Below are positions 46,187-64,000 of a stretch of DNA of 64,000 nucleotides, one piece after another (position 1 is the stretch's first letter; each line of letters starts with the position of its first letter). Source of the DNA: Bacillota bacterium (GTDB lineage: Bacteria; Bacillota; Clostridia; TANB77; CAG-465); NCBI GenBank assembly GCA_023460235.1, contig JAEWRE010000039.1, positions 116,820 to 180,819 of the forward strand. Reading direction: 5' to 3'. Both the position numbers and the translations under genes were made by a program. The notes under the pieces are model-generated. The model saw only the letters and a list, made by a program, of their open reading frames with translations, was not told the DNA's origin and did no database searches.

Positions 46187-46262
46187 TGGTGTTCCTGGTG
46201 CGAATCGAACGCACGACCAACGACTTAGGAGGTCGCTGCTCTATCCACTGAGCTACAGAAAC
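46187..46262 (-). tRNA. tRNA-Arg (anticodon CCU)
   Basis: On the minus strand: GTTTCTGTAGCTCAGTGGATAGAGCAGCGACCTCCTAAGTCG...CACCAGGAACACCA. Anticodon loop CTCCTAA. Confidence 0.8.
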
Positions 46263-46482: not shown

Positions 46483-47079
46483 ATGTTAAATATTCTTAAA
46501 AATGATCAATCTATATTTGAAAAATCAGATATAATTCGGAATTATTACTTGCTTGAAATATACGCCGATTACAGTTTTGTAATAGGATCAAATGATTTGT
46601 ACTCTTCAAAAGATTATATAAGAGAATATTACTATTTCTTGTATCGAATGCTTGATAAGAAATCAGATTCATGGGAAGATATAAATTTTAATAAAGAAAA
46701 TGGCTATTTATCAGATGAACCATATAAGGAAATAAAAAGGATAAAAAGTTTAATAGAGAAAATCCTTTATATGAAGAATTTACCTATGAATATTTTAGTA
46801 TATAATAATGGTCCATCTGATGGAGGCATTATGTTTGAGTACTACACCAAAGCGAAAATCTATGTTCCAAATACATCTAATTTAAAACTTCATAAAATAA
46901 AAGATAAAGAGCTATTTGATTATTTGGCAAGTTTAAATAACCATATAATAAAAAATATTATGAGTTTTATATACTGTGCCAAATATAACGCCTCACCTGA
47001 TTTACTCCAAAAAATCCTAGTACAACAAGGCTTGGAGAAAATTATTTTTTCTGAAGAAAATATTTTCTATCTATATTAA
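46483..47079 (+). CDS. Hypothetical protein (198 aa)
   Basis: RBS GAGGAGG. No motif recognised. Confidence 0.4.
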   Translation: MLNILKNDQSIFEKSDIIRNYYLLEIYADYSFVIGSNDLYSSKDYIREYYYFLYRMLDKKSDSWEDINFNKENGYLSDEPYKEIKRIKSLIEKILYMKNLPMNILVYNNGPSDGGIMFEYYTKAKIYVPNTSNLKLHKIKDKELFDYLASLNNHIIKNIMSFIYCAKYNASPDLLQKILVQQGLEKIIFSEENIFYLY

Positions 47080-48636: not shown

Positions 48637-48713
48637 GGTTACATATGCACCTGTAGCTCAACTGGATAGAGTGCCGGACTACGAATCCGTAGGTTGGGGG
48701 TTCAAATCCCTTC
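48637..48713 (+). tRNA. tRNA-Arg (anticodon ACG)
   Basis: GCACCTGTAGCTCAACTGGATAGAGTGCCGGACTACGAATCCG...CAGGTGCACCA. Serves as attachment site for the downstream element. Confidence 0.85.
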
Positions 48714-48725
48714 AGGTGCACCAAA

Positions 48726-48775
48726 TTAAATAAAAACAGATCAAGTACTATATAGTACTTGATCTGTTTTTATTT
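48726..48775. terminator. Bidirectional terminator (AAAAACAGATCAAGTACTATATAGTACTTGATCTGTTTTT)
   Basis: Long perfect palindrome. Confidence 0.65.
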
Positions 48776-48952
48776 ATTATTCAATATTTTAACAGCATCC
48801 AAAATACCTATTAGATATAAAAGAGATACAAATCCATTATTTTGATTAATAAACTCAATTTCATTTTGATTAAAGATAGTTTCACTTTCTAAGATTTTTT
48901 TAATAATCAATTCTTCCATATATTCCCCCTTTTGTACTTGACATTTATACAA
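48770..48952 (-). CDS. Small hypothetical protein (60 aa)
   Basis: ORF only. Adjacent to the SinR-like regulator. Confidence 0.3.
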   Translation of the reverse strand: MYKCQVQKGEYMEELIIKKILESETIFNQNEIEFINQNNGFVSLLYLIGILDAVKILNNK

Positions 48953-49169
48953 AAAAGTATATAATGAGTTTATATATACCTTATGTATATGTTTTAAATA
49001 GATAGTTTAGTTGTTTGAGCAAGGCTATCTATTTTCTTTTATAATTATCTTTAATTTATTAAAAAATAAGAATAATTATAAATTTATTGTACAACTCCAT
49101 TTGACTAAAATCAACTATTTTTTAAAATAATCGTTCGACATGATGGCAAATTTGACAACATGTCGAACG

Positions 49170-49493
49170 CTATTTGTATTCTGATAATTTAAAGATTATT
49201 AAGTCTATTATTCTGCTAATTTTCAAAGTTTTCGGATGAGTTAGACCATAACTTTCAATATGGTAATTAAGACTTTTTTTTAGTGAATTTATTTCTTCTA
49301 CAGTATAAAAAAAATCTTTTATATTTACATCTAAAAATTTAGATATAGTATAAAGTGAATATATACTAGTATTTTCAATTTTATTATTTTCTAAATCTGA
49401 TAAATGTGAAATTGATATACCTGTACCTTTATGTATTTGATCTAGCGTATATCCTTTTTCTTCCCTAATAATTTTCATTGTTATTACTATCAT
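49170..49493 (-). CDS. SinR-like XRE HTH regulator
   Basis: 107 aa. HTH KGYTLDQIHKGTGISISHLSDLENNK, similar in size and layout to SinR (HTH plus a short helical tail). Confidence 0.45.
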   Translation of the reverse strand: MIVITMKIIREEKGYTLDQIHKGTGISISHLSDLENNKIENTSIYSLYTISKFLDVNIKDFFYTVEEINSLKKSLNYHIESYGLTHPKTLKISRIIDLIIFKLSEYK

Positions 49494-49595
49494 AATGCTT
49501 CCTCTCTAATAAAATTTAACAATTAATTATTATATATTCAATAATTAATAATTTCAATAAAACTATTAGGATTAAACTTTATTTATATATTGTAT

Positions 49596-50264
49596 TTATA
49601 TTTTAGTTAGTCCACCAGACCAAACATAATTTCCTTTTGCACTTTTGTACCATTTATTATTACCATTAACATTTTCACCTTCTACAATAGCTACTGCTTT
49701 AAATATATCACCTTTTTGAAGTAATCCTGTACCAGCTATCCCAGATTTAGAAGTTGCTTGGCTTCTTACATTAGCCTCTGATTTATCTACTCTTATATTA
49801 AAACTCTTTTCTTGTGTTTGCTCTGAATATGGCAGTATTTCCATTTGATGTTTGAAATATGGATTAGGATCTACTGGTATATTGTTTTCTCTTACTTCAA
49901 AGTGTAAATGTGCTCCAGTTACAAATCCAGTTGCTCCCATGTATCCAATTACTTGTCCATCTTCTACAATATCTCCAATATTAACACACACAGTACCTGG
50001 TTTCATATGAGCATATACTGTACTTATATTGCCACCATGTTGAATATGTACAAAATTCCCATAGCTTCCTGCTTTATATCCTGGTACGTTCTTTTCAGCA
50101 TTTATTACTTTACCTTTTTTACAAGCAATTATTTCGTCTAATTGGTAACCTTGTTTCACAAAGTCTATTCCAGAATGTTTATATGGTATACCATTTAACT
50201 TTTGATTTCCATATTGCAATGTTATTATTTCTTGTTCACTTTTTAATACATTCATGTTAAACAC
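49596..50264 (-). CDS. M23 (lysostaphin-like) peptidase with C-terminal SH3b cell-wall-binding domain: putative lysin
   Basis: 222 aa. M23 motifs HSGIDF...HxH (GAHLHFEV). SH3b-like C-terminus (KWYKSAKGNYVWSGGL). Confidence 0.7.
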   Translation of the reverse strand: MFNMNVLKSEQEIITLQYGNQKLNGIPYKHSGIDFVKQGYQLDEIIACKKGKVINAEKNVPGYKAGSYGNFVHIQHGGNISTVYAHMKPGTVCVNIGDIVEDGQVIGYMGATGFVTGAHLHFEVRENNIPVDPNPYFKHQMEILPYSEQTQEKSFNIRVDKSEANVRSQATSKSGIAGTGLLQKGDIFKAVAIVEGENVNGNNKWYKSAKGNYVWSGGLTKI

Positions 50265-50290
50265 CTCTATTTTTTTATATATTTTGTTGT

Positions 50291-51991
50291 TTAATTTTTT
50301 ATATCTACAATTTGCATTTCTGCATATCTTACTTGACCTGCGCCACCATCTTGTTGAAGTGAATGTATTATTGATTTAAACACTGTCCACGTTCCAGGTA
50401 TAGTATTCCATGCAACTTTATTAGTAGAAATCCTCATCATTCTGGCATTATTAGTTGCACCCCATATTCTCTCAAAATTGAATGAAATATTTTTGTATGA
50501 ACCATATTGATCAAATAATCCAACAACAGTGGCAGCATTATCAATTTGACAATTATCAGTATAGATTAACATCATTTGTGCATATCTACTATATCCTTCA
50601 GGTAATGGAATTCTTGAATCAATATCACTTTTAAAATTATAAAATATATTTCCTAAGTCTTTCCAACTTCCCTTATCTATATTTACAGGTGTATCTCCAG
50701 CTATACCAAATATGGGAAAACTTGCAACAATCTTATTTTTTGTAATACTATATAATTCTCTTCCTTTTCTAGCAGATAATGCATCTGTTGTACTATTACT
50801 ATCAAAGCTATCTACAACTATGGATTCAAGAGGTACGCTATTTTTAGCTTTAATAATTGAATATTCAACGAAATAAGGTTGTAAATTATTATGAGCCTGA
50901 CCGCCACCACCAAGATTAAATTTTAAATTTTGTAATGAATTTTCTGAATTATAAATCGTTGCATCTTTGTATTTTCCAGTAACTGAATTTGAACTACTAA
51001 ACACACCTTGAGGAGCCCAGGTATTAGAACCATTAGTGGATCCATGAAAATCTATCTGACCAGTAACATTAGGTATTTGATTTAAAGTTAAAGTATGTGT
51101 TTTTGCACCACCTATTGTTCCTATCTTATTAAACTCTGTTTGAGAGCTATCATGTGATACTACAACCTTCCCTTTTTTATTTGGAAGATTAAATGTTGTT
51201 GAACCATCCCCTTCTCCATACATAATTCCTATAACATCAAATAAGTCTTTATATTCTGTTCTTGATACTGCTCTACCATCTTCAATAAGCCAATTACTAG
51301 GAGGATTAGCAGAAGGATAATATCCTTCAAATCCTATAGGAAGGGTATCTGAATTTATTGTGCCTTCACTATCAACTTTAATTCCATCTGGACCAAACAC
51401 AATAATATATTTTCCATCATCAATATTTGTATAATGATATTTTGGTATATTTACATTTACGCTTGTTGCTATTGCTAATTTTATATAGAATTTTTTACCT
51501 TTAGTAAAACCTTGTGCACCTAAATCGCCTTGAAGTAAACTTTCTATTGAAAATTCACTTTTTTGTTCTTTATATACTATTTTTGATAAGTCAATTTCGA
51601 ATGGGCCATATTCAGTTCCTTCAGTTTTACCATTTTGATTATATGGAGATTCACTAGACCAATATTTTATATATTTTACATCATACTTCTCTAAATATTT
51701 TAACTTACCAGTTGCTTTAAATTTAACTTTTTCATCAACATCATTTGACCTTGTAGCCTCAACACTAGTAAAGTATGGGGTATAAAAAATTTCAACATTC
51801 AAAGGCTTAATGCTACTAGAAGTATTTCCCCTACTATCTACAATGGTTACTTTAACATAATCTTTTCCATCTTTTAAACTTTTAATCAATTTATCATCAT
51901 TTAAATAAATTGTTTCTGTTAAATAGGAATATCCATTCGGAAATATTATACCTTCCATTATAACAACACCTCCTCTGTTTGCCCGTTCCAT
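50291..51991 (-). CDS. Tail fibre / receptor-binding protein with phage tail-collar domain
   Basis: 566 aa. GGGGQAHNNLQPYFVEYSIIKA collar signature. Gly-rich, beta-rich. Confidence 0.55.
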   Translation of the reverse strand: MERANRGGVVIMEGIIFPNGYSYLTETIYLNDDKLIKSLKDGKDYVKVTIVDSRGNTSSSIKPLNVEIFYTPYFTSVEATRSNDVDEKVKFKATGKLKYLEKYDVKYIKYWSSESPYNQNGKTEGTEYGPFEIDLSKIVYKEQKSEFSIESLLQGDLGAQGFTKGKKFYIKLAIATSVNVNIPKYHYTNIDDGKYIIVFGPDGIKVDSEGTINSDTLPIGFEGYYPSANPPSNWLIEDGRAVSRTEYKDLFDVIGIMYGEGDGSTTFNLPNKKGKVVVSHDSSQTEFNKIGTIGGAKTHTLTLNQIPNVTGQIDFHGSTNGSNTWAPQGVFSSSNSVTGKYKDATIYNSENSLQNLKFNLGGGGQAHNNLQPYFVEYSIIKAKNSVPLESIVVDSFDSNSTTDALSARKGRELYSITKNKIVASFPIFGIAGDTPVNIDKGSWKDLGNIFYNFKSDIDSRIPLPEGYSRYAQMMLIYTDNCQIDNAATVVGLFDQYGSYKNISFNFERIWGATNNARMMRISTNKVAWNTIPGTWTVFKSIIHSLQQDGGAGQVRYAEMQIVDIKN

Positions 51992-52875
51992 TCTATTATT
52001 GCCTTTTTTAAGGTAGCTCCATTTTTTGCTTTAAGACTATCATTCTTTATAGCAATATAAGCATTAGATAGGGTTCCATATAATTCAAATCCAGCAATTA
52101 TATTGTTTATTTCTTGATTTGAACTAGTCCCACCCTCAATATCAAATATTCCAAAAATAGGGATCTCTGGATTACTATTAACAACCTTACATTCACCATT
52201 TGCAGTAGTAGTTCCTAAATATGTATTGTCAATATAAGTATAGAGATTAATTCTTATATTGGCTATTTTACTATTTGGCAATAAATTATAAAAAGTATCT
52301 TTTATATCAGCTAAATTGAGAGTAAAATTCTTAGAATTTTTTTCAAACTTTTTTATATTTATCCATGTATTATTTACATACATATCTAAATCTAATTTAT
52401 AATTATAATTTTGATTGGTTATATCTGATATATTTATATTTAAGTTATTTCCAATATCAAAATTTATATTAGAACTTATATTACTTGATACATAACCAGT
52501 TGGGGTTGTTAATGTTCTATCGGCTCCAGTATCGTATGTTATACTCCCTCCATTTGTGCTTTTAAATATAACTCTACAACCATTTATTTGGTTACTTCCA
52601 TATCCTTTATTAAACCAATAATAATCAGAATCAGAAGGAAAGTAACTTGTACCACTCCCATTATTTGGTGTGTTTGCTTTTATTTGTCTACCATAATTAG
52701 TTCCTTCAGTATATACATCTGAAATTATATTATAACCAAAATAATATCCATTATCTATTGCCCACGTTAATTTCCATCGTATACCAAGTCTAGGACCATC
52801 TCTTGTTGTTTCATATTCAACAATATAATTTATATGTCCCCATTGATTTTCTTTGCCTTGTGCGAATACTTGCAT
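51958..52875 (-). CDS. Tail fibre/baseplate-associated protein
   Basis: 305 aa, Asn/Gly/Tyr-rich beta-type composition. Positioned between the Tal-like and fibre genes. Confidence 0.35.
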   Translation of the reverse strand: MQVFAQGKENQWGHINYIVEYETTRDGPRLGIRWKLTWAIDNGYYFGYNIISDVYTEGTNYGRQIKANTPNNGSGTSYFPSDSDYYWFNKGYGSNQINGCRVIFKSTNGGSITYDTGADRTLTTPTGYVSSNISSNINFDIGNNLNINISDITNQNYNYKLDLDMYVNNTWINIKKFEKNSKNFTLNLADIKDTFYNLLPNSKIANIRINLYTYIDNTYLGTTTANGECKVVNSNPEIPIFGIFDIEGGTSSNQEINNIIAGFELYGTLSNAYIAIKNDSLKAKNGATLKKAIIEWNGQTEEVLL

Positions 52876-52886
52876 AATTTTTCCTC

Positions 52887-54761
52887 CTAACTATCCTTAT
52901 CATAAGATATTCCTACTCTTCCATCCTGTAGCACTGTTATTCTCATTTTTCCTATATTTAAACGTTCAAAGAAGGTTGCTCTATCAAATGTTGAATTATC
53001 GCCATTAAATTCGGCTTTAACTTTATTTGTTTCTCTATTTTTTATTATTGTTCCTTCAGCACCAAAAATTGTCTTAGTATTTTTTATTGTACTTTCAACC
53101 TCAAATCCATTATGGCCAAAAGAATAATTGGTTCCTACTAATTCACCAGGATAACTTTGATAACCAAGTCGTCCCCCTTTATTAAACATACAATCACAAA
53201 ATAATGTATAATTATTATCACTTAAAATTTCAATCTCGACTTGTGACATAGTACTATTTACTGGAAATTCTACCTCTGTAAAAATACCTGGCTCGATTTC
53301 AATATTATATATTTTTTCTATACCTGTTGTTATTTTAACTTGTACATTTGTAAGCTCTAATTTATATATAATACAACTAAATGTATATTCTGTATTTTCC
53401 TTTATTTTTATAGGAGCAAACTTTACACTACCATTATTTATTTTTATTGCTGTTTTAGATATAGTATTTTCTAAGATTTCATTATTTTGTACAATACTCA
53501 CGTTGCCATTTTTTATATTACCATCATATCCTAAACGTAAAGTACTATCTTGTAGAAGGTTCAAACCACCAGCTTGCTGTAAATTTATATTCACATTATC
53601 AACATTTTGTGTTATTTTGCTTATTCTCGTGTTATTTTCTTCTACTAAACTTGCTACTGATTGTATAGTTTGATCTTGCTTATTTACTATAATTTCTGTC
53701 CTTTTAGCAATTTCTAGAGCTGTAACTGGGTTCTCATATTCAATACTAGCCTTTGTTATACTAGGTGCTTCAAATCCTATTTCAGTTCCTTCAATATTAA
53801 TTTTTAATATTATTGTTTTAATACTTTCTCCAGATTTATTTTTTACAGTTACAGCATCACCTACTTCAATGTAAGGATATAAACAATTTTTTAAAGTCAT
53901 TGAAGAGTAACCAAAACCTGTGGATTTATTATATATTTGGCTTATTAATTGTTCTCTTTTATTTTGTGTATAGGCAAAGGGATTATCTACAAGCATTAAG
54001 TAATTTTCTCCATAGTATTGAATTCCTTCTTCCCATCTCATAGTAACATTTTCACCTTCAATATTAGATGCTCCAAGTCCAACAACTGTAATAGGTTGAA
54101 TATCTCTATTATCTTCAAATTCTGAATATTCATTAGTTTCAATTACTATATCAGTCATATTTGCAAATATTAATTTTAATTTGTCATCTATTATTTTGGC
54201 AAAATTACAACTTATACCTGAAATAGCACTAATAACATTCCCAAATTGTGCTCCATCAAATTGATTGCTATCAACAATAAATCCTGAATTTTCAAATTCA
54301 GTAAAATCATATTCAACATCACACTTAATGCAACATTCTTCAAGCACATCTAGTATTGTTACGCTACCACTTGAATAATTTAATTCTGAGTTGTACGATT
54401 TTGCAAACTTTAAACCATAATCATAAGCAGTTACTTTAATACTTTCTTTTGTATCACTTTCCTTTATATCATAAACTATAAATGTTCCATATCCTATTGA
54501 TTCCCAAGTCCCATCTTCCAGCTTAAACTCCTTAAATGCCTTAAAATCTTTTTGTTTGAAATCAATATTACTATCTGAATAATCAAATTCAATTCTCTTC
54601 ATAATAAAATTTTGTATAAAATTTCCATCTTTGTAGCAATCATCATAAAGATTAAACCACAGATATATTCTATCTGTGGTTCCATTTAAGATAATATAAT
54701 CTCTTTCAATTATATTATCTTTTTTTAGTGTATTTTTTAAAGCAATAGAAACATTTTTCAT
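52887..54761 (-). CDS. Tail-associated (Tal-like) / prophage endopeptidase-tail family protein
   Basis: 624 aa, in the position and size class of siphovirus Tal. Start ATG overlaps the upstream stop (ATGA). Confidence 0.45.
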   Translation of the reverse strand: MKNVSIALKNTLKKDNIIERDYIILNGTTDRIYLWFNLYDDCYKDGNFIQNFIMKRIEFDYSDSNIDFKQKDFKAFKEFKLEDGTWESIGYGTFIVYDIKESDTKESIKVTAYDYGLKFAKSYNSELNYSSGSVTILDVLEECCIKCDVEYDFTEFENSGFIVDSNQFDGAQFGNVISAISGISCNFAKIIDDKLKLIFANMTDIVIETNEYSEFEDNRDIQPITVVGLGASNIEGENVTMRWEEGIQYYGENYLMLVDNPFAYTQNKREQLISQIYNKSTGFGYSSMTLKNCLYPYIEVGDAVTVKNKSGESIKTIILKINIEGTEIGFEAPSITKASIEYENPVTALEIAKRTEIIVNKQDQTIQSVASLVEENNTRISKITQNVDNVNINLQQAGGLNLLQDSTLRLGYDGNIKNGNVSIVQNNEILENTISKTAIKINNGSVKFAPIKIKENTEYTFSCIIYKLELTNVQVKITTGIEKIYNIEIEPGIFTEVEFPVNSTMSQVEIEILSDNNYTLFCDCMFNKGGRLGYQSYPGELVGTNYSFGHNGFEVESTIKNTKTIFGAEGTIIKNRETNKVKAEFNGDNSTFDRATFFERLNIGKMRITVLQDGRVGISYDKDS

Positions 54762-55135
54762 TACACTATCACCTCACTACTTTTTTCTAATATGACATCA
54801 AATTCAGAATATGATTCCCCATATTTACTATATATTAAATTTTTAGATCCTTTGGTTACTATAAAATTATATTTTTTATAACTTCTTGTATTTGGATTCC
54901 AAACTTCATATTCTCCATCTACAAATCTTTCATTATATTCTTTTATAGTTGAACCATCTAGTTGCCCTATATTTATTCCAATTGTTAAAGTATTATAAGA
55001 AGCATAAATGATTTTTATGCTCCCATCTGCCTTTATAGATTTATTTAAAACAACTGGTTGTTCATCAAATTCATATCCTTCACTCAATATATTACTAAAT
55101 TTATATGTTCCTTTTTTTATTAAATAATCTTCCAT
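54761..55135 (-). CDS. Small tail component (distal-tail position)
   Basis: 124 aa, immediately after the tape measure. Short for a canonical Dit. Confidence 0.3.
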   Translation of the reverse strand: MEDYLIKKGTYKFSNILSEGYEFDEQPVVLNKSIKADGSIKIIYASYNTLTIGINIGQLDGSTIKEYNERFVDGEYEVWNPNTRSYKKYNFIVTKGSKNLIYSKYGESYSEFDVILEKSSEVIV

Positions 55136-55144
55136 ATGTACCTC

Positions 55145-56368
55145 CTAGAAGCCATACTGTAATTCTAATTTTTTATTTACTCTATTTGTGTTTTTTGCAA
55201 CTTTTTCTCCATCTAGTTCTACGGTAGAGTTTATAATTATTTCTTTATTATCACTTATGGCTTGTAATGTTGCCTGTGTTTTATCTTCATTTTCCACTTG
55301 CATTGTTGCTGTAGACGTTAAATTAGCACTTAATTTTCCTGTTTCAATATCTATTGTTTTTTGCATATCAGCATAAACATATTTTATATTTTTTATAAAT
55401 CCCTCTCCAATGCCCAGAGCTATATACTTGCCTACTTCATCCCTAAATTCTTTTGATGGACTATGTATTCCTAATACGCTTTTCATTCCATCTAATATTC
55501 CTTTTGCAAAACTTGCAATTTTATCTTTTAACCATGCAGCAGCATTATTTATTCCATTCCACAAGCCTTCAACAATGTTTTTACCTATATTTAACATATT
55601 GGCCGGTAAATCATTAAAAAAATTAGATATGTTTTCTATTATTAATGGTATGTTTTCCATGATCATATTTTTCATATTAATAATCCATAATTCAATATTA
55701 TCTATAGTTTTTAATAACAAATTTAAAATATTTTCTGGTAATTCTCTAAACCAATTTATTACACTATTTATTATTTTTGGTAGTTCTGTTGTAATCCAAC
55801 TAGTTATATCTATTCCAAATTTAATAATATACCCTAAAACCACCCCTATTAGATACCCTACATTATATGGTAATTCTTTGAACCAGTTTATTGCCATAGA
55901 TATCCAACTAGGTATTGTTTCAATAAAAAAATTACCTATAGCATTGAATACTTCTGATATCACATCTTTAACATTGTTAAAGATGTCAATAATTGCATTT
56001 CTAAAATCTTCATTTGTTGTCCATAGATATATTATTGATGCAATTAATCCTGCAATCAAGCCTACAATTATAGGAATAGGATTTGACAACAACATTGCAA
56101 AGTTTAAATTAATCTGTGATGTCGTCATTACATCTAATGCATTGCTTACTATCTGTATAATTTCACTTACTTCTTTTGCTAAACCTAATGCTGCATCAAA
56201 TGAAGCTATTACCTCATTCATAGACATTGATGATTGTAAAGCCATAAACACCCCTGTTAACGGAATTATTACTTTCACTAAATTATTTAATTTATCTGTG
56301 GCTTCTTGTGCATCACTTGCAACAGAGACAATTGGATTTTTTATCGATTTATTTGATTCTTTTGCCAT
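55145..56368 (-). CDS. Tail tape measure protein (unusually short, 407 aa)
   Basis: Position after the chaperone pair, helical composition, internal hydrophobic segments (IPIIVGLIAGLIASIIYLW) typical of tape measure proteins. Confidence 0.5.
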   Translation of the reverse strand: MAKESNKSIKNPIVSVASDAQEATDKLNNLVKVIIPLTGVFMALQSSMSMNEVIASFDAALGLAKEVSEIIQIVSNALDVMTTSQINLNFAMLLSNPIPIIVGLIAGLIASIIYLWTTNEDFRNAIIDIFNNVKDVISEVFNAIGNFFIETIPSWISMAINWFKELPYNVGYLIGVVLGYIIKFGIDITSWITTELPKIINSVINWFRELPENILNLLLKTIDNIELWIINMKNMIMENIPLIIENISNFFNDLPANMLNIGKNIVEGLWNGINNAAAWLKDKIASFAKGILDGMKSVLGIHSPSKEFRDEVGKYIALGIGEGFIKNIKYVYADMQKTIDIETGKLSANLTSTATMQVENEDKTQATLQAISDNKEIIINSTVELDGEKVAKNTNRVNKKLELQYGF

Positions 56369-56387
56369 CTTTTCACCTCACTTTTAC

Positions 56388-56424
56388 AAAAAAGAATGCA
56401 TCCTTAGATGCATTCTTTTTTCTA
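56388..56424. terminator. Hairpin with flanking T-runs inside the tail gene string (AAGAATGCATC-CTTA-GATGCATTCTT)
   Basis: Perfect 11-bp stem between the chaperone and tape-measure genes. Possible attenuator. Confidence 0.4.
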
Positions 56425-56466
56425 ATTTTATTTTTTATTATTTGATTCTTTCTTATATATATTGTT

Positions 56467-57042
56467 TTACCAAAAAACACTACCAAAATCCCTTTCTTTT
56501 TCTTCTGTTGTGCGTACATCAGGCAACGCATATAATTTTCTTAGTTTTTTATAGTGATTCTTTGTTTCTTTATCTTTAATCTTAGATAAATCAATTGCTC
56601 TATAACCCATTATTTTTGATATTTGGGTATTTTCATTTAATCCATTAAACATAGCTTTGAATTCCCACCAGTGTAAGCATTTTACTTTGTTTAAATTTAT
56701 TTGATATTGTTCTAAAAAAGCATCAAAAATATAATCTGCATCAAATTGATAACTGTATATTTGATTTGATCTATTATCATTATTTTCAGAACTGACTAAT
56801 TCTTTCTTTTCATCTCTTCCACATCGATAAAACCAAAGCATGTCTTTTATAGCAATATTGATATCCTTAATTTTAGATAAATCATAATAGAGATTAAGAG
56901 CAAGTAGAATTTTATCTTTTTCAAATATTTTATTATCTTGCATAAGTAATTCAAATTTAATAGAAGTCCTAAAGTCTGTATCTATTTCAAGTCCATTTTG
57001 AGTTATTTGGGGTAATTTATCTAATAATATATTAGTTAGCAT
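56467..57042 (-). CDS. Tail assembly chaperone (gpT / Gp15-like position)
   Basis: 191 aa. Synteny only. Confidence 0.35.
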   Translation of the reverse strand: MLTNILLDKLPQITQNGLEIDTDFRTSIKFELLMQDNKIFEKDKILLALNLYYDLSKIKDINIAIKDMLWFYRCGRDEKKELVSSENNDNRSNQIYSYQFDADYIFDAFLEQYQINLNKVKCLHWWEFKAMFNGLNENTQISKIMGYRAIDLSKIKDKETKNHYKKLRKLYALPDVRTTEEKERDFGSVFW

Positions 57043-57045
57043 ATA

Positions 57046-57399
57046 CTACTTCCTTTTTTGTACTCTTCTTTGTTCTCTATTAGGTTGATATCTATTAAAA
57101 GTATTTTCAAATTCCTTTTGCTGTTCTAATTTCTCTTTAACAATATCCTCAAAAGCAGTTATACAATCTTGTAAATTATTTTTTTCACCAAAAATATTAA
57201 GTGATACTCCTTCACCGAAAACATTATCAAAGAATTCCTTTATTAGTATACATTCTAATTTTATAGTTTCAGATAATTTCATATCTTTTTTTTCATATTC
57301 TTCTGCCTTTTCTTTAACCTTTTGCACTTCAATTTCAAATTTTTCAACGCAATCAGCATCTAAAAAATCAAAATCAACTTCTACTTCTCTTATTTTCAT
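57046..57399 (-). CDS. Tail assembly chaperone (gpG-like position)
   Basis: 117 aa, acidic, directly after the major tail protein. Confidence 0.35.
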   Translation of the reverse strand: MKIREVEVDFDFLDADCVEKFEIEVQKVKEKAEEYEKKDMKLSETIKLECILIKEFFDNVFGEGVSLNIFGEKNNLQDCITAFEDIVKEKLEQQKEFENTFNRYQPNREQRRVQKRK

Positions 57400-57402
57400 C
57401 TA

Positions 57403-57891
57403 TTATTCCTCCTCTGCTGTAAATGTTGATGATTCCCAATTATCAGTTGTACTTGCTATACCTTCAATTATATCTCCTTGTGCTGCAAAAGTACCACTAT
57501 ATTGATAAGCATCAGTTCCATCGCCATCAGCTTCTGGAATTACTGAATATACTCTCTTTTTAGCTTTAAATGTTCCAGCTGTTGAACCAGCTTCATTAAA
57601 ATTAACTGTAACTATCTCAACAATCTTGCCAGTAATTTCTTTATCATGTACTTCTGCTATAAGATCTTGTACATCATTATCAATCATTCTGTCAAAGTTA
57701 TATGCAATTTCTGTTGCATATCCAGTAACATCTTTTCTTTGTGTTCTTTCCTCAACATATCTTCTTTCATATGTACTTGAATTTAAACTTTTTCCACTTT
57801 CAGTAAATCCAGTCATTCTTGAATAATTTTCTCCGTTAGCTGTAGCTTTCATAAAATTTACGATATCTGCTCTGTTATATAATTTTCCCAT
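57403..57891 (-). CDS. Major tail (tube) protein, TP901-1-like family
   Basis: 162 aa. Size and sequence character (TGYATEIAYNFD...GTFAAQGD) fit siphovirus major tail proteins. No sheath gene nearby. Confidence 0.55.
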   Translation of the reverse strand: MGKLYNRADIVNFMKATANGENYSRMTGFTESGKSLNSSTYERRYVEERTQRKDVTGYATEIAYNFDRMIDNDVQDLIAEVHDKEITGKIVEIVTVNFNEAGSTAGTFKAKKRVYSVIPEADGDGTDAYQYSGTFAAQGDIIEGIASTTDNWESSTFTAEEE

Positions 57892-57893
57892 TT

Positions 57894-58307
57894 TTAATTT
57901 CCTCCTTCAAAATAAACAACTTGCATTTTTACTATGTAGTTTGCAATCGTCTCATTTTTTTGCAAAATATATCCTGGTGTTGTACATTTTATACTTTCAA
58001 TTCCAGATATATTAAGCAAATTACTAGATTTGTTTTGTGTTTCAATCCATTTATTAAAATCTTCAAAAAATTTACTGTTAGTAAGATTTTGAAGATCAGT
58101 AAATGAGCCACTAACAGTAAAATCAAATGTCATTTGCTTTAAACTACTACCATCAGCATATTGTTTATAAACTAAATTAGATTGTGTTAAATCCATGCTG
58201 TAATTACTTATTTCATCACTAACATAATCAACAATTATTTTTCCATTTTCAAAACATGGACATGTTGCTATAATGTCTTTAACTAATTCTATCTTTGATT
58301 TAGACAT
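57894..58307 (-). CDS. Putative tail completion/terminator protein
   Basis: 137 aa. First gene of the tail string. Confidence 0.3.
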   Translation of the reverse strand: MSKSKIELVKDIIATCPCFENGKIIVDYVSDEISNYSMDLTQSNLVYKQYADGSSLKQMTFDFTVSGSFTDLQNLTNSKFFEDFNKWIETQNKSSNLLNISGIESIKCTTPGYILQKNETIANYIVKMQVVYFEGGN

Positions 58308-58882
58308 TTTAATATACTCCTCTACCTCTTTGCAAATTTTTCTCCTTATATATATAGAAAATTACAATTCAATTATAATATTGTATTTAAAAGTATTTAA
58401 CTTTTATTCAGATTATAATAAAAAATTAATGTTTATCTTTTTACTCTTTAACCAAGATAGTTTGTATTTGTTTTCTTATTTTTATATAATACTTTGAGTA
58501 TAAATCATATTAAAACTTTAACATTATAATATCTCTACGTATAGATATTATTTAATATAAATCTATATGTTTATATGATATATACTCTAATAAAAATAAG
58601 TTTCTAATATAAATATATTTCTATTTTTAGTATTAATTTTTTTATATACTTTGAATTGTTAGATTCTACATATTTTCAGATTTTAAATTTTGCATTGAAA
58701 CTTTTGATAATGATTTTAACTAATTTGATAATTTATCCTCCAGCTGAAAGGTTGTTAATTTATTAAATTAGTATCTCATCATCACTATTGTATAATCTAA
58801 ACTATTTATTAGTTAGATTATATGCTTCTTTAACGTCTAGCTCCAAAGACGAAATTACCTTAGATGCTATTAATTTTTTTAA

Positions 58883-59308
58883 TTATTTTACATCCAAATT
58901 TTTATCTTTTAATTGTGTAAGTATATCTTTTAATTTATTTGGATATGGAACTCCTAATTTTGTTGTATTTTCTAAAAGTGAGATTCCTTCGTTGGCAATA
59001 TAAAAGAATATTGATAGTTTCCTTAGCATATCAATGTTAAGTGCTTGATCTAGCATGTTGCATAAACCTATTAAACCAAAAATTAAGAATTTTTTAAATA
59101 TACCTTTATATCCAACCTCAGAATTTAAATTTTTATTTATAAATATTGCCACTGCAAGTCCAGTTATAAAGTCAGTAAATGTAAATGCAACTAAAACACT
59201 CATAGAAATATCCCATCCACCTAAATAATTTAATATCAATGTACCAAGTGTAGCAAATATTAAACAAATCCATTGCCCAATTTCACTTAAATTACTTAAT
59301 CTAAACAT
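58883..59308 (-). CDS. Holin, TcdE / phage_holin_4_1 family
   Basis: 141 aa, 3 TM. Block GGWDISM...FTDFITGLAVAI...GYKGIFKKFLIFGLIG...GVPYPNKLKDIL parallels C. difficile TcdE. Confidence 0.65.
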   Translation of the reverse strand: MFRLSNLSEIGQWICLIFATLGTLILNYLGGWDISMSVLVAFTFTDFITGLAVAIFINKNLNSEVGYKGIFKKFLIFGLIGLCNMLDQALNIDMLRKLSIFFYIANEGISLLENTTKLGVPYPNKLKDILTQLKDKNLDVK

Positions 59309-59524
59309 TTTTCACCTCCCTTTTTTCTAAATAAAAAAACATTGTACTTATACAACGTTTTTTATTAATAGAATTTATATTAAATCTATGACTTATTACA
59401 AGCTAATTAAATTAAAGTAAATTAATTTGTAAAATTTATCTAATGTTTATATCTATTGCTATTATACATTATAACATGGTTTTTATATAAATTTCTATTC
59501 TTTAAATCCCAGTTTTTTCCCAAT

Positions 59525-60157
59525 TTAATAATTTGTTCTGATAATACCTAATAATTTAGTTTTAATGTTAGATAGTTTATTCTGAAGCCTTTTTTGAGTC
59601 AGCTCCTTATTAAAATTTTTATTATATGAAATTTCAATATCAGACCAATCCATAATTTCATAATACTTACATTCTATCAAAAACATTTCTTTTGGACTTA
59701 ATATATTAAAAGCTATCTCTAGTTTACGTATCTCAATTTCAATTAAGGCTTTCTCACTTTTTGCTATTTTTATTAATTCTTCAGCTTGTTTTTGATTTAA
59801 TTCATTTCTTATTGCTTCGCTTTCAACAGGACTATATAATCTATTTTTTGCTCTAGGCATTCCAAATGTGGATTCTGGAGTATTAGTAAAAATATTTTCA
59901 TTTTCTTCAAGGGCTTTATTCCATGTATTTATTCTTTCAGATAATGTAGCAATTTTTGCTTTATTATTTATATAATTTTTTAGCATTCTATTTACATCTT
60001 TCATATCTAATAAGGCATCTGCACATGGTGTACTACTTTCTCTATTAAATTTTCTTGGTTCTTTACAAAATCTACAATAACTATAACTTTCACACATACC
60101 ACCATTACACTTTATAGCTCCTTTTTCTAGTTTATCTTGTATTTGTTCTTTATTCAT
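59525..60157 (-). CDS. Putative late-gene transcriptional activator: sigma-70 region-4-like C-terminal HTH with N-terminal Cys4 cluster
   Basis: 210 aa. C-terminus LSPKEMFLIECKYYEIMDWSDIEISYNKNFNKELTQKR resembles region 4 / ArpU-RinA-type activators. N-terminus CNGGMCESYSYCRFC. Confidence 0.4.
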   Translation of the reverse strand: MNKEQIQDKLEKGAIKCNGGMCESYSYCRFCKEPRKFNRESSTPCADALLDMKDVNRMLKNYINNKAKIATLSERINTWNKALEENENIFTNTPESTFGMPRAKNRLYSPVESEAIRNELNQKQAEELIKIAKSEKALIEIEIRKLEIAFNILSPKEMFLIECKYYEIMDWSDIEISYNKNFNKELTQKRLQNKLSNIKTKLLGIIRTNY

Positions 60158-60202
60158 ATACCCTCTTTCCTCCTTTTAAAATTATTATATCTTATTTTAA
60201 TA

Positions 60203-60385
60203 TTAATCTTTTTTACACTCATTGTGCTTTTCATATGTATAATTTAATACTCTAATAATCTCTTTAGCTAATGACTGATCTTTATTTTTATAAAATATCC
60301 TTTGGATTAAATTATGTATATCAGCATAATTACTTTGATGTATTTTTTCATTTCTAATATAATCTTCAATAGTGTAGTATTTCAT
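60203..60385 (-). CDS. Small protein (60 aa), first gene leftward of the divergent control region
   Basis: ORF only. Confidence 0.3.
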   Translation of the reverse strand: MKYYTIEDYIRNEKIHQSNYADIHNLIQRIFYKNKDQSLAKEIIRVLNYTYEKHNECKKD

Positions 60386-60448
60386 TTTCTATTTCCTCCC
60401 TCATATTACTAACTTTTCATATATTTATTTTAACTTAAGAAAACCTTT

Positions 60449-60618
60449 TGATCGTATAAATAGTTTTTAATTCATATCAATTTATTTTCTTGTTACGATA
60501 ATTATATACCACTTTAATTATCGTGTCAAGTATATTTTTAAATTTATTATCGTCTGCCGTTTATTATGTAATTTTTATTGACACGATAATATGAATATGA
60601 TATAATTATATTGACAAG
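60449..60618. promoter_or_regulatory. Divergent control region with repeated operator half-sites (ACGATAAT / ATTATCGT) and a sigma-A promoter for the repressor gene
   Basis: Near-palindrome CTTGTTACGATAATTA-N11-TAATTATCGTGTCAAG at 60489-60530. Further half-sites at ~60547 and 60586. -35 TTGACA (60579) and -10 TATAAT (60602). RBS AAGGAG before ATG 60649. Confidence 0.5.
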
Positions 60619-60648
60619 AAAATTTTTTAAAAAAATAAGGAGAAAATA

Positions 60649-61017
60649 ATGAATGAATCTGATAGAGAATTAATTGGTAAGAGACTAAAGTCAAGAAGAG
60701 AGTTAGCTGGATTAACTCAAGAACAAGTTGGTGAAAAAATAGGAAAAACCTTTGCTACTGTTGCAAAATATGAAAGTGGTGAAATAAAAAATATAGATAT
60801 AATGGTTATTAGCACAATTGCTGATATAACTGAAACTGACATTGACTATTTATTATTAAAAAATGATGATCCAAACCCTAAGAGCAATTATATAAAGTAT
60901 AAACATTTAAATAATTCTTTAATAGGTAGAGTTTCTAAAAAAATGGAAGGGATGTCAGATAACGAGCTGCAAATGCTTGATAAGATAATAGATGCTCTTA
61001 TGAATGAAAAGAAATAA
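60649..61017 (+). CDS. XRE-family HTH repressor (ImmR/CI-like)
   Basis: 122 aa with an N-terminal HTH (LTQEQVGEKIGKTFATVAKYESGE). Confidence 0.6.
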   Translation: MNESDRELIGKRLKSRRELAGLTQEQVGEKIGKTFATVAKYESGEIKNIDIMVISTIADITETDIDYLLLKNDDPNPKSNYIKYKHLNNSLIGRVSKKMEGMSDNELQMLDKIIDALMNEKK

Positions 61018-61026
61018 AATTGGAGA

Positions 61027-61449
61027 ATGTGTGTTATGAAAAAATTTTATGATTATATACAAAAGGAAAATATTATATATAAAGAAGATTATATTGATGA
61101 AAATATAAAGGGACTATGCATAAAACTACCGAACAGTAAGACTGCTATTATTCTTAACAATAGTCTAATAGAAAATAAAATTGAAAGAAACTGTATTCTT
61201 GCGGAAGAATTAGGACACTATTATTGTGATGCCCTTTATTCACCATTTTGTAAAGATCAAACGATAATAGATCGAAATGAATATAGAGCAAAGAAATGGG
61301 CATTTAAGTCTATCATAGGTAAAAAATTAAATCAAAATATAAAAAAGTATAAAAATATGCTTAAATATGAAGTTGCTGAAGAAATTGGTGTAACTGAAGA
61401 TATGCTTGATATGGCATATGATTATTATAAAAGAAATGAGGCGCTTTAA
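61027..61449 (+). CDS. ImmA/IrrE-like (DUF955) putative metallopeptidase with variant motif (EELGH instead of HExxH)
   Basis: 140 aa. ILAEELGHYYCD. Translationally coupled to the repressor gene. Confidence 0.4.
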   Translation: MCVMKKFYDYIQKENIIYKEDYIDENIKGLCIKLPNSKTAIILNNSLIENKIERNCILAEELGHYYCDALYSPFCKDQTIIDRNEYRAKKWAFKSIIGKKLNQNIKKYKNMLKYEVAEEIGVTEDMLDMAYDYYKRNEAL

Positions 61450-61479
61450 TAGTTGGTAGTTATAGGGAACATGGAAATT

Positions 61480-61927
61480 GATATGAATTAAAATATACTT
61501 ACAAAGAAAAAACAAATTATAAAACAATTAAATTAAGCAAAGCTATGAATATAGATACTGAATTACAAAGATTTGTAATTGCTATTGAAGATAAAGTATC
61601 ACCTACCTCATCTATTAACTTTACAGTTTATGCTCAAAATGGTTGGATGAATATGCTTATCCAAAATTATCTGCCAAAACAATATAAGGTTACAAGGAAC
61701 AATTAAACAATAAAATAATTCCTTATTTTGGAAGTATGCAATTGAAAGACATTACAACTTATAATATTCAACTTTTTTTAAATGATTTATCAAAGGAATT
61801 TATAGTCGAGAAAATAGTAAAAGGTGAGAAAATAACACAATTAACACAATTAACAGGATGCACAATAAAAAATACAAAGATTAATTTCAGTTATGCTCAA
61901 TTCAGCAGTAAAGTGGCAATTAATTGA
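61480..61927 (+). pseudogene. Tyrosine-integrase remnant (N-terminal AP2-like/core-binding fragments only, frameshifted, catalytic domain absent)
   Basis: Frame a: YELKYTYKEKTNYKTIKLSKAMNIDTELQRF...YLPKQYK. Frame b: IPYFGSMQLKDITTYNIQLFLNDLSKEF (classic integrase N-terminal signature). The ORF ends about 70 nt before the att repeat. Confidence 0.5.
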
Positions 61928-61998
61928 ATTTAATCCGTGTATATATGTATATTTCTTAAAGGTAAAGAAAGTACAATAAAGTCAGTTTTTTTAATAGA

Positions 61999-62046
61999 CT
62001 ACGAATCCCCGTAGGCTGGGGGTTCGAATCCCTTCAGGTGCACCAT
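61999..62046 (+). repeat. attR-like partial copy of the tRNA-Arg(ACG) 3' end
   Basis: GACTACGAATCCCCGTAGGCTGGGGGTTCGAATCCCTTCAGGTGCACCA versus the tRNA GACTACGAATCCGTAGGTTGGGGGTTCAAATCCCTTCAGGTGCACCA. No 5' half present. Confidence 0.75.
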
Positions 62047-62073
62047 TATAATTACTGTGATATCAAGCATTAT

Positions 62074-62547
62074 CTAAATATTTTGCTTGATATTTTTTTT
62101 ATCATAACTTGATTTTTTTACTGTAACAAGAATACTAAATAATAATGTTTGTATTAATATTTCTAGTAAACCTCCAATTTGTAAACTTAATGGTTCTTTA
62201 GAAGGATAAAGATATATAAATTCTTCAATTGAAAAAGAAGCTGTACCAGGTGTATTAAAAATTCCTAATATTATAAGAATCAACCATACTCTTAACCATC
62301 CATATTTATTATTGATATAACTATTTCTAATTAATACTAGAACTATTCCAAATAGAATACCTCTAATAATTTGAAAAAGTGGTGCCATTTTAACTATAAT
62401 ACTACTCATATCTCTTCGAGTTGAACTATCAATTAGGGAACTCTGATAATTAAATATTTGTGAAAAAACAATACCACAAACTACATATGTTATAACATGA
62501 ATTATAGTTACTTTAAATATAAATTTTATTTTCTCATTTTTTATCAT
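62074..62547 (-). CDS. Membrane protein (4 TM)
   Basis: 157 aa. Confidence 0.35.
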   Translation of the reverse strand: MIKNEKIKFIFKVTIIHVITYVVCGIVFSQIFNYQSSLIDSSTRRDMSSIIVKMAPLFQIIRGILFGIVLVLIRNSYINNKYGWLRVWLILIILGIFNTPGTASFSIEEFIYLYPSKEPLSLQIGGLLEILIQTLLFSILVTVKKSSYDKKNIKQNI

Positions 62548-62586
62548 TTTTCTTACTATTTTATATAGATATTTTGCAGATATATT

Positions 62587-63210
62587 TTATTTACTATTTT
62601 GCTTTTCTTTTCGACTTTGAATATACGTTACAAGTGAACATATAAATATATATATTATAAAAAATAGAATAAATTGCATATATGTATTGCTAGATAATAT
62701 TGGATATGGTGCCATAAAATGTGAAAATAATAAATTGTATATTATAGACAATGGTATAAACACAATAATCCATATATTGATTTTCCAAAATTTATTTTGA
62801 GATAACAATTTATCTTTGTTAGAAGCCTGATATTTTCCTATTGTAAAGATCATAGTTCCAATTATCATAAATATAAAGCCTGCTAAAATTGCATCATCTG
62901 CCCTTGTATTATTCCATATAAAAATTGATATTAATAATCCTAAAAAATTTAAAGAGGTCGCTACTGAATTAAAAATATATGTGTTTTCTGTACTATTATC
63001 TCTTTTGTTATTTTCTATTCCCCTTAGTAATAAATCCGTAGTAACATCAAAAAAGTCACTTAGTAGTATTATTTTATCAATATCAGGTATTGATTGTCCA
63101 CTCTCCCACTTTGAAACCGCTTGCCTTGATACCCCTATTTTATCTGCAAGTTCTTCTTGTGAAATTCCTTTAATTTTTCTAAATTCTAAAATCCTATCTG
63201 CTAATGTCAT
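62587..63210 (-). CDS. Membrane-bound XRE HTH regulator (N-terminal HTH plus C-terminal 4-TM domain)
   Basis: 207 aa. HTH ISQEELADKIGVSRQAVSKWESGQ. Confidence 0.5.
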   Translation of the reverse strand: MTLADRILEFRKIKGISQEELADKIGVSRQAVSKWESGQSIPDIDKIILLSDFFDVTTDLLLRGIENNKRDNSTENTYIFNSVATSLNFLGLLISIFIWNNTRADDAILAGFIFMIIGTMIFTIGKYQASNKDKLLSQNKFWKINIWIIVFIPLSIIYNLLFSHFMAPYPILSSNTYMQFILFFIIYIFICSLVTYIQSRKEKQNSK

Positions 63211-63448: not shown

Positions 63449-63796
63449 TCATATAAAATTTTTAGTTTTTCTTTTCATTATTATTACATCATCCCTTATG
63501 TACTCAACAATATAACTAAAAATTTTATCCACTTCAAATTCTTCAATAAAAAATATTTCATCTTTTGTAAAAACATAATTATAATCATATATAACTTGAT
63601 TACACATATTTAATATTAGATTATACAACTTCTCTTTTATTATTGTTTCTAGTAAAACACTATATTTTCCATTTTGATTTTTCTTTATATGTTCAACAAA
63701 ATTATATTTATAATATATTTCATTTGACTTCTTTTTTATTTCATTATAATAATTATATTTTTTAAATATATTAAACAATTTCATACTCCACCTCAA
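63449..63796 (-). CDS. Hypothetical protein
   Basis: 115 aa. Confidence 0.3.
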   Translation of the reverse strand: MRWSMKLFNIFKKYNYYNEIKKKSNEIYYKYNFVEHIKKNQNGKYSVLLETIIKEKLYNLILNMCNQVIYDYNYVFTKDEIFFIEEFEVDKIFSYIVEYIRDDVIIMKRKTKNFI

Positions 63797-64000
63797 GACC
63801 TATTAGTTATAAAATATGCATAATAAGTCATTATATTTAACTACAAAATAATGTATTATATTATATAATGATCTTTATTTATATAATACATACATGATTT
63901 GAAAGGATTTTATTATGAATTATTTGTCTTTATTTAAAAATGATTTTGAACTAAGAAACCATATATCAACAAGCATAAAAAAAATACGAAAAGAGAATAA

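Follow-up and report, generated by a model that had tools for sequence, protein, structure and literature searches.

To our knowledge, few F-type tailocins (phage tail-like bacteriocins) of Gram-positive bacteria are known, namely, monocin, a particle of Clostridium (Hathewaya) histolyticum (2026) and the enterococcal efagins. F-type tailocins are of interest as narrow-spectrum antibacterials. Monocin is encoded by the ftb cluster, in which the structural genes ftbD-P are accompanied by a regulatory region and a lysis cassette (PMC11830787); under SOS conditions, the metalloprotease MpaR cleaves the CI-like repressor of monocin (PMC9043618). The F-type tailocin of C. histolyticum NCTC 503 (locus 02168-02181) has been seen by cryo-electron microscopy and mass spectrometry (bioRxiv 10.64898/2026.06.17.733002), and the efagins of Enterococcus faecalis are specified by a head-less tail-like cluster of 14.6 kb that is core to its lineage and varies in the targeting domain (bioRxiv 10.64898/2025.12.13.693970). 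Here, we analyzed a window of 64,000 nucleotides, that is, the whole stretch of DNA under study (positions 116,820 to 180,819 of contig JAEWRE010000039.1, assembly GCA_023460235.1), from a member of the Clostridia (Bacillota bacterium, CAG-465), in which a 13.3-kb element lies between an intact tRNA-Arg(ACG) gene and a partial copy of its 3' half. An earlier note on this DNA had recognized a delimited insertion with a decayed integrase; the main point of interest is rather what the insertion carries, an intact head-less cluster of tail, lysis and regulation genes. Judging from its gene content, the element is probably a domesticated F-type tailocin, and the locus would add a candidate from an uncultured, very low-GC lineage of Clostridia to the small set above.

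Gene identities (Table 1) were derived from Pfam, PHROG, NCBIfam and PDB sequence searches and one structure prediction. A full set of genes for a non-contractile tail is found between the repeats: terminator, tube, two chaperones, tape measure, distal tail protein, hub-like protein and fibre. The cluster has the same three-module layout and structural gene order as that of monocin (PMC11830787), but the similarity between the proteins is at the fold level only. Indeed, comparison of the tube, terminator, distal tail and hub proteins with all PDB chains (including monocin entries 8qhs and 9j1k) by phmmer and profile searches yielded no monocin match, implying independent domestication of a different siphophage lineage rather than membership in the monocin family proper. 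Furthermore, the monocin holin is next to the lysin, whereas here the holin precedes the tail genes; the monocin distal tail protein FtbK has 272 aa and its tape measure 622 aa, compared with a minimal distal tail protein of 124 aa and a tape measure of 407 aa in the window; the window lysin differs in being an M23 peptidase; and traces of integration, the attachment-site (att) scars and an integrase stub, have survived.

The C. histolyticum tailocin is likewise clostridial, head-less, non-contractile and accompanied by lysis genes. The 162-aa tube protein of the window is a distant homologue of a 160-aa 'Phage tail tube protein' in the PDB (11ok), which, given its name, length and date, is most likely the tube protein of this tailocin. 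By contrast, the C. histolyticum locus has a duplicated tube gene and a different host and chromosomal context. Compared by description, F-type pyocins of Pseudomonas aeruginosa are more remote, having a Gram-negative host, lambda-like ancestry and PrtR/PrtN control in place of the XRE/ImmA pair. The efagins, also compared by description, resemble the window element in size and in being head-less, lineage-core and variable in a localized region; however, no evidence of mobility or of association with mobile elements has been reported for them (bioRxiv 10.64898/2025.12.13.693970), whereas the window element keeps its att repeat and integrase stub.

The absence of a head is evident from several searches. 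No sheath, capsid, portal, terminase, scaffold or replication family was detected in Pfam and PHROG scans of all open reading frames (ORFs), and tblastn searches for head-gene remnants with the head ORFs of six complete relatives gave no match better than E = 0.09. In terms of head, packaging, replication and functional integration genes, the element is therefore not an intact temperate siphophage. At the position expected for head genes there is a 575-nt AT-rich non-coding gap, which is probably a deletion scar. It contains a 28-nt block, CGTCTTTGGAGCTAGACGTTAAAGAAGC, at 58824-58851 (minus strand), just 3' of the holin stop codon, which is unique in the window, has unremarkable folding energy and is conserved in a related locus, L004 (~8185-8215; see below); the rest of the gap is poorly conserved, save for ~50 nt directly before the start codon of the tail-completion gene. 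The GC content of the element is indistinguishable from that of the rest of the window.

Complete phages with homologous tails clarify what is missing. A search with the Gp15-family protein combined with a scan of GTDB species genomes yielded 62 loci, nearly all from metagenome-assembled genomes (MAGs) of uncultured Clostridia and from Clostridium species. When the window proteins were mapped onto these loci, all but one locus had only tail genes in common with the element. The siphophages of C. perfringens, C. difficile and uncultured Clostridia combine homologous tails with terminase, portal, scaffold and capsid genes, whereas the window element has none of these head genes. The loci checked among the 62 are complete siphophages. 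In L014, for example, the homologous tail genes are directly preceded by genes for terminase, SPP1-type portal, minor capsid protein 2 and capsid. L070, a 38.6-kb contig (ENA ERZ23500176 scaffold_264), has scaffold and capsid genes and a tail tip 57–73% identical to that of the window (p124, 73%; 624-aa protein, 63%; 305-aa protein, 57%). The window tail genes are 36–73% identical to those of complete siphophages, and the Gp15-family protein is 44–45% identical to those of the cultured clostridial phages vB_CpeS-1181 and phiCD38-2. Whole-element megablast against deposited phages gave no match, nor did tblastn with the 624-aa tail protein among 50,697 deposited phage genomes. The contigs of two relatives of p124 (P0125 and P0127) are too short for their head-gene status to be read. 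A tRNA scan within ±10 kb in 51 related phage loci revealed no complete relative integrated at tRNA-Arg. As a separate observation, complete-phage relatives carry a tRNA-Trp(CCA) gene inside the head module, ~5 kb upstream of the Gp15-family gene (L014, 5306-5380; likewise in L018, L019, L023, L024, L027-L029, L034, L042, L044, L048 and L054).

Two other loci carry the head-less cluster. L004 (run SRR13358440; identical to L007), from the MAG 'Bacillota bacterium OH_CBB_1' (JAEYPQ01), matches the cluster gene for gene at 62–90% amino-acid identity and was also recovered by exact-protein look-up. L005, a Logan contig (SRR25666306), covers the stretch between the tail-completion gene and the tRNA, at 84–97% identity. 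In both loci the lysin end abuts tRNA-Arg(ACG). L005 starts 152 nt before the tail-completion gene, and since these 152 nt align with the non-coding gap of the window, the head-less junction is common to L005; the alternative that L005 is a complete phage cut at the contig end was rejected on the same ground. The left flank of L004 is syntenic with that of the window, with a homologue of the gene at 46483-47079 and two tRNA-Arg genes, and so is the right flank, with homologues of 63449-63796 and of the gene starting at 63915. Presence of the same cluster at the same tRNA between syntenic flanks implies that the insertion predates the split of the two lineages. With a synonymous divergence of 0.4–1.5 between the window and OH_CBB_1, this supports the earlier view of an old, fixed insertion. 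The earlier note had also held that the same 13 kb in relatives would point to core chromosome; the 13 kb is indeed seen in OH_CBB_1, but it reads as an insertion made before the split and not as a refutation. No relative with an empty site was found, both recovered relatives carrying the cluster: a homologue search with the left-flank gene at 46483-47079, aimed at empty sites, returned only the query itself in this thinly sampled lineage, and two metagenome scans with the tRNA sequence gave 0 hits. In a contig from the same species (L001, Logan SRR13358388), the left-flank proteins are 99–100% identical (two of three at 100%), and the contig ends at 11123, 33 nt after tRNA-Arg(ACG), an assembly break at the element boundary. 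Literature searches for MAG OH_CBB_1 and the run accessions found nothing.

Comparison of the three lineages, although a small sample, points to selection on the cluster. From the tail-completion gene to the XRE-Spo0E fusion, ORF lengths are identical in all three for 7 of 11 genes; the tape measure differs widely (407, 544 and 599 aa) and the fibre, lysin, tube and tail-completion proteins slightly. The ratio of non-synonymous to synonymous substitutions (dN/dS; Nei–Gojobori method, NG86) is 0.05–0.33 in 13 of 15 genes, at dS of 0.13–1.5. As far as the sequences tell, the head-less tail, lysis and regulation cluster is retained vertically under purifying selection. The C-terminal ~130 aa of the tape measure are near-identical in the three elements, with a divergent and shortened N-terminal part. 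In the fibre, the ORF reaches 51991 and the conserved start is M12 at 51958; alignment shows its central segment to be hypervariable, as expected for a specificity determinant. The 624-aa protein is a putative hub, given its position, size and PHROG match; related phages share its N-terminal ~370 aa, whereas its C-terminus is variable. The 305-aa protein may be a baseplate or side-fibre component. Over 69 aa, the C-terminal domain of the endolysin shares 64% identity with the C-terminal part of the L070 CHAP lysin. The XRE-Spo0E fusion has its own promoter-like site (49557..49529), is 89–93% conserved and lies near the tRNA end in each of the three elements; it is probably cargo or a regulator. 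The fusion may link the element to control of the sporulation phosphorelay.

The boundaries of the element retain the marks of integration. ARAGORN identified five tRNAs in the 64-kb window, and the complete tRNA-Arg(ACG) seen in the earlier note is among them, although the coordinates given there (48637-48713) are 10 nt too low according to ARAGORN and Rfam. The partial copy corresponds to the last 47 nt of the tRNA (48677-48723), starting with the last two bases of the anticodon stem (from G30) and extending across the anticodon loop as far as the CCA end. Relative to the tRNA, the copy has a 2-nt insertion (CC) and two substitutions, T to C in the variable region and A/G in the T-loop, which bears out the ~3 differences noted before and refines the limits of the copy (Table 1). 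A 28-nt core of the repeat is present in exactly two copies in the window, compared with an expectation of 0 from 100 shuffles. Neither ARAGORN nor Rfam (at E ≤ 0.1) called a tRNA at the right-hand copy, so that its 5' half is truly absent and, as previously argued, it is not a second tRNA gene. The T-loop position is G in the tRNAs of both relatives, as in the fragment of the window, implying that two of the three differences are changes in the fragment and the third is a change in the functional tRNA gene. In the standard model, the 3' half of the intact tRNA at attL is derived from the element, and the fragment at attR is the displaced original 3' end. The anticodon stem/loop was reportedly described by Williams in 2002 as the commonest att sublocation within tRNA genes. 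A hairpin with a T-run follows each copy, in agreement with the terminators noted earlier, and the stem of the right-hand one resembles the terminator 3' of the tRNA in L004.

Just inside the right-hand copy are the remains of a tyrosine integrase, as the earlier note had it. They occupy the canonical place for an integrase, downstream of the repressor and ImmA-like genes, read towards the repeat and include the motifs '...IIPYFG..LKDIT..IQ.FLNDL...' and 'AVKWQLIEFNPC'. Nothing corresponding to the catalytic domain is left between the ImmA-like gene and the tRNA fragment, and only ~47 nt separate the last recognizable integrase codon from the fragment. Without this domain, the element is unable to excise by itself. 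Thus, with an intact tRNA at one end, a repeat of its 3' half at the other, an integrase stub and phage-derived content between them, the attL/attR reading holds, and the duplicated tRNA-Arg end is well supported as the mark of an old phage insertion. Neither the integrase stub nor the tRNA fragment was found in L004, which has thus advanced one step beyond the window element in erasing its phage origin. Of the scars that attest to the birth of the element (att repeat in the tRNA, integrase stub and head-gene gap), the first two are therefore erased in the sister lineage. Together, scars and sister lineage suggest a stepwise passage from a tRNA-integrated prophage to a fixed host weapon with a small, defined gene set.

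Table 1. Features of the 13.3-kb element and its ends, in window coordinates (a dot denotes no strand)
Feature	Coordinates	Strand	Evidence or remark
Intact tRNA-Arg(ACG), attL	48647..48723	+	ARAGORN; Rfam tRNA 64.6 bits
Hairpin, perfect 23-bp palindrome with A/T runs on both sides; bidirectional terminator 3' of tRNA	48727..48775	.	dG -29.3, z -11.1
Small ORF, 60 aa, cargo	48770..48952	-	67–71% identity in two related elements
XRE helix-turn-helix/Spo0E-like fusion, 107 aa	49170..49493	-	Pfam HTH_3 2e-8, SpoOE-like 3.5e-7
Endolysin, M23 peptidase with C-terminal wall-binding-like domain	49596..50264	-	Pfam Peptidase_M23 1e-25; PHROG endolysin
Tail fibre/receptor-binding protein, Phage Tail Collar and Gp10_C domains	50291..51958	-	Pfam Collar 6e-16; PHROG tail protein 5e-39
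305-aa protein without family match, always between hub-like protein and fibre	51958..52875	-	57% identical to L070 equivalent
624-aa tail-tip protein in tail-associated/hub (Tal) position	52887..54761	-	PHROG_6616 tail protein 7e-26; alignment
Minimal distal tail protein (p124), 124 aa, lambda gpM-like	54761..55135	-	
Tape measure protein, 407 aa	55145..56368	-	PHROG tape measure protein 3e-55
Strong 15-bp hairpin with U-run between Gp15-family and tape measure genes, possible internal attenuator	56388..56421	.	dG -21.7, z -8.9
Phage_Gp15-family protein, putative tail assembly chaperone	56467..57042	-	Pfam 2.8e-51
DUF6673 protein, putative second tail assembly chaperone	57046..57399	-	Pfam 2.3e-28
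Tail tube protein, 162 aa	57403..57891	-	PDB 11ok_A 1.8e-10, profile 8e-15; weak NCBIfam tube_lmo2291
Tail completion/terminator protein, first structural gene	57894..58307	-	PHROG_3266 tail completion 1.5e-27
575-nt AT-rich non-coding gap at expected head-gene position	58308..58882	.	also in L004 and L005
Holin, Phage_holin_4_1, upstream of tail genes	58883..59308	-	Pfam 3.5e-35
Hairpin with U-run just before holin ribosome-binding site	59334..59363	-	also in L004, with a different stem sequence
Extended -10 promoter-like site, conserved	59497..59468	-	also in L004
210-aa regulator, N-terminal Cys cluster and C-terminal sigma-region-4/ArpU-like helix-turn-helix	59525..60157	-	PHROG_36 transcriptional regulator 2e-6
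60-aa ORF (p60), first gene of predicted lytic transcript	60203..60385	-	68% identical in L004
Genetic switch	60386..60648	.	promoter-like sites and operator-like 8-mers
CI-like XRE repressor, 122 aa	60649..61017	+	Pfam HTH_3 1.8e-12; PHROG repressor families
ImmA/IrrE-like metalloprotease, 140 aa, putative anti-repressor	61027..61449	+	PHROG_87 metallo-protease 1.8e-15; Pfam M78 0.008
Tyrosine integrase remnant, N-terminal arm and SAM-like domains only	61482..61950	+	three frames with stops; Phage_int_SAM_3 1.5e-13 (stitched peptide)
Partial tRNA-Arg(ACG) 3'-half copy, attR	61997..62045	+	direct reading and alignment
Hairpin with T-run 3' of partial copy	62059..62094	+	dG -12.7, z -3.7

The regulatory end of the element displays a genetic switch and signs of late control. 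The switch contains two perfect divergent matches to sigma-70 promoters, 60529..60501 (minus strand) and 60578..60606 (plus strand), which are overlapped by four copies of an operator-like 8-mer, ACGATAAT/ATTATCGT. Over its first ~180 nt, the window sequence is ~90% identical to L004, which has the same promoters, and this DNA conservation exceeds that of synonymous sites in the adjacent genes. The 210-aa regulator, whose L004 orthologue has a weak DUF722 match, may be a late-gene activator or an antiterminator. In both the window and L004, a promoter-like site followed by a hairpin with a U-run precedes the holin gene, with stems of differing sequence, an arrangement that suggests late control of the antitermination type.

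By analogy with monocin, the history and action of the element may be reconstructed as follows. A temperate siphovirus would have inserted into the tRNA-Arg(ACG) 3' half in an ancestor of this low-GC (~26%) Clostridia lineage and would then have lost the catalytic domain of its integrase and all replication, packaging and head genes, keeping four modules: a repressor/ImmA-like switch, a late regulator, a complete non-contractile tail, and a holin with an M23 endolysin. Upon a stress signal, the ImmA-like protease would inactivate the XRE repressor, and firing of the leftward promoter of the switch would lead to expression of p60 and the 210-aa regulator. The latter would activate or antiterminate transcription from the conserved pre-holin promoter through holin, tail genes and lysin. 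Tails would assemble on the 407-aa tape measure to ~14 tube rings and 55–60 nm (scaled from monocin, 622 aa and 22 rings), and the holin and lysin would lyse the producer cell. The released particles would bind related cells via the Collar-domain fibre and kill them without transfer of DNA.

Several observations weigh against a functional tailocin. Residues 60-64 of the ImmA/IrrE-like protein read EELGH, where the zinc motif HEXXH of the family would be expected; the same EELGH is found in L004, and the dN/dS of this gene (0.05) is the lowest in the cluster. The N-terminal two-thirds of the tape measure are divergent and the protein as a whole is unusually short (compared with 620–890 aa in most complete-phage relatives), and the strong hairpin just upstream of its gene could impair expression of the tape measure and baseplate; the terminator scan of L004 reported no equivalent hairpin. 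The hub assignment is weak, since a PDB profile search with the 624-aa protein yielded nothing significant, and a single-sequence AlphaFold2 model of its N-terminus was unusable (predicted local distance difference test score of 31). PDB profile searches with the distal tail and terminator proteins likewise gave nothing significant. The dN/dS reaches 0.44–0.51 in the tail-completion gene and 0.5–0.6 in the poorly aligned tape measure. Perhaps only a portion of the cluster is under purifying selection, or the function selected for is something other than killing. Moreover, the cluster is known from three lineages only, two of them represented by metagenome contigs, and L005 stops short of the regulatory end. 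Finally, induction, assembly, release and killing are deduced by analogy.

The frameshifted integrase stub, the decayed att repeat, the shortened tape measure preceded by a terminator-like hairpin and the further loss of sequence at the regulatory end of L004 could all be explained if the element were an inert prophage remnant in decay, its tail genes functionless and not yet eroded. We consider this unlikely, though not negligibly so. The identical ORF lengths and low dN/dS across three lineages, which are separated by a dS of up to ~1, argue against it, as does the conservation of the switch above synonymous sites of adjacent genes. Moreover, decay appears to be confined to integrase, head and replication genes, which are dispensable for a tailocin, whereas conservation holds for the switch, the late regulator and the genes for tail and lysis.

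Alternatively, the cluster could be retained for a function other than killing, namely, to supply tails for capsid-only satellites or a head-only element, for programmed lysis, or as a vehicle for the XRE-Spo0E-like regulator. Capsid-forming phage-inducible chromosomal islands that borrow the tails of helper phages have been described. Conservation extends to the XRE-Spo0E fusion as well as to the tail and lysis genes, and no sequence feature points specifically to killing. Nevertheless, we give this explanation little credence: neither the 64-kb window nor the DNA beside the cluster in L004 shows a head-only element, the hypervariable fibre segment is as expected for a specificity determinant, and the architecture of switch, late regulator, holin, tail and lysin matches characterized tailocins (PMC11830787). 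Two more definite forms of the idea, that the cluster is (perhaps in addition to being a bacteriocin) a dedicated tail-donor/lysis module completing the tail-less capsids of another element, such as a capsid-forming satellite or a head-only remnant elsewhere in the genome, or that the XRE-Spo0E-like regulator ties tail production and lysis to the sporulation decision, seem to us quite improbable; if either were true, the short tape measure and the pre-holin promoter-terminator would be adaptations for host control and not decay. That there was no integration at all, the region being ancestral chromosome and the tRNA fragment a local duplication or separate event, is extremely improbable: it would suit the presence of the cluster here in every available relative and the lack of an empty site, but neither the extent of the repeat from the anticodon stem/loop to the CCA end, nor the position and orientation of the integrase stub, nor the identity of the tail genes to those of complete siphophages. 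A domesticated F-type tailocin thus remains the probable identity of the element.

Between attR and the syntenic right flank, the region 62074-63210 (minus strand) encodes a 157-aa membrane protein without family match and a 207-aa membrane protein with an XRE helix-turn-helix; both genes are missing from the corresponding position in L004, and the exact proteins (genes 62074-62547 and 62587-63210) are not on record. The 157-aa gene was considered as phage cargo because L070 has a 157-aa gene after the lysin, but this was rejected as the two are not homologous. On the other side of the element, the gene at 44845-46089 (plus strand) encodes a protein of 414 aa, in which PF25186, 'Type I Thoeris inhibitor Tad4', is matched by the C-terminal ~104 residues (E = 4e-24). 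This gene is found in an otherwise chromosomal context next to tRNA-Arg(CCT) (46187-46262, minus strand) and is preceded by a 55-aa helix-turn-helix gene. The occurrence of such an anti-defence domain outside a recognizable prophage is unexpected.

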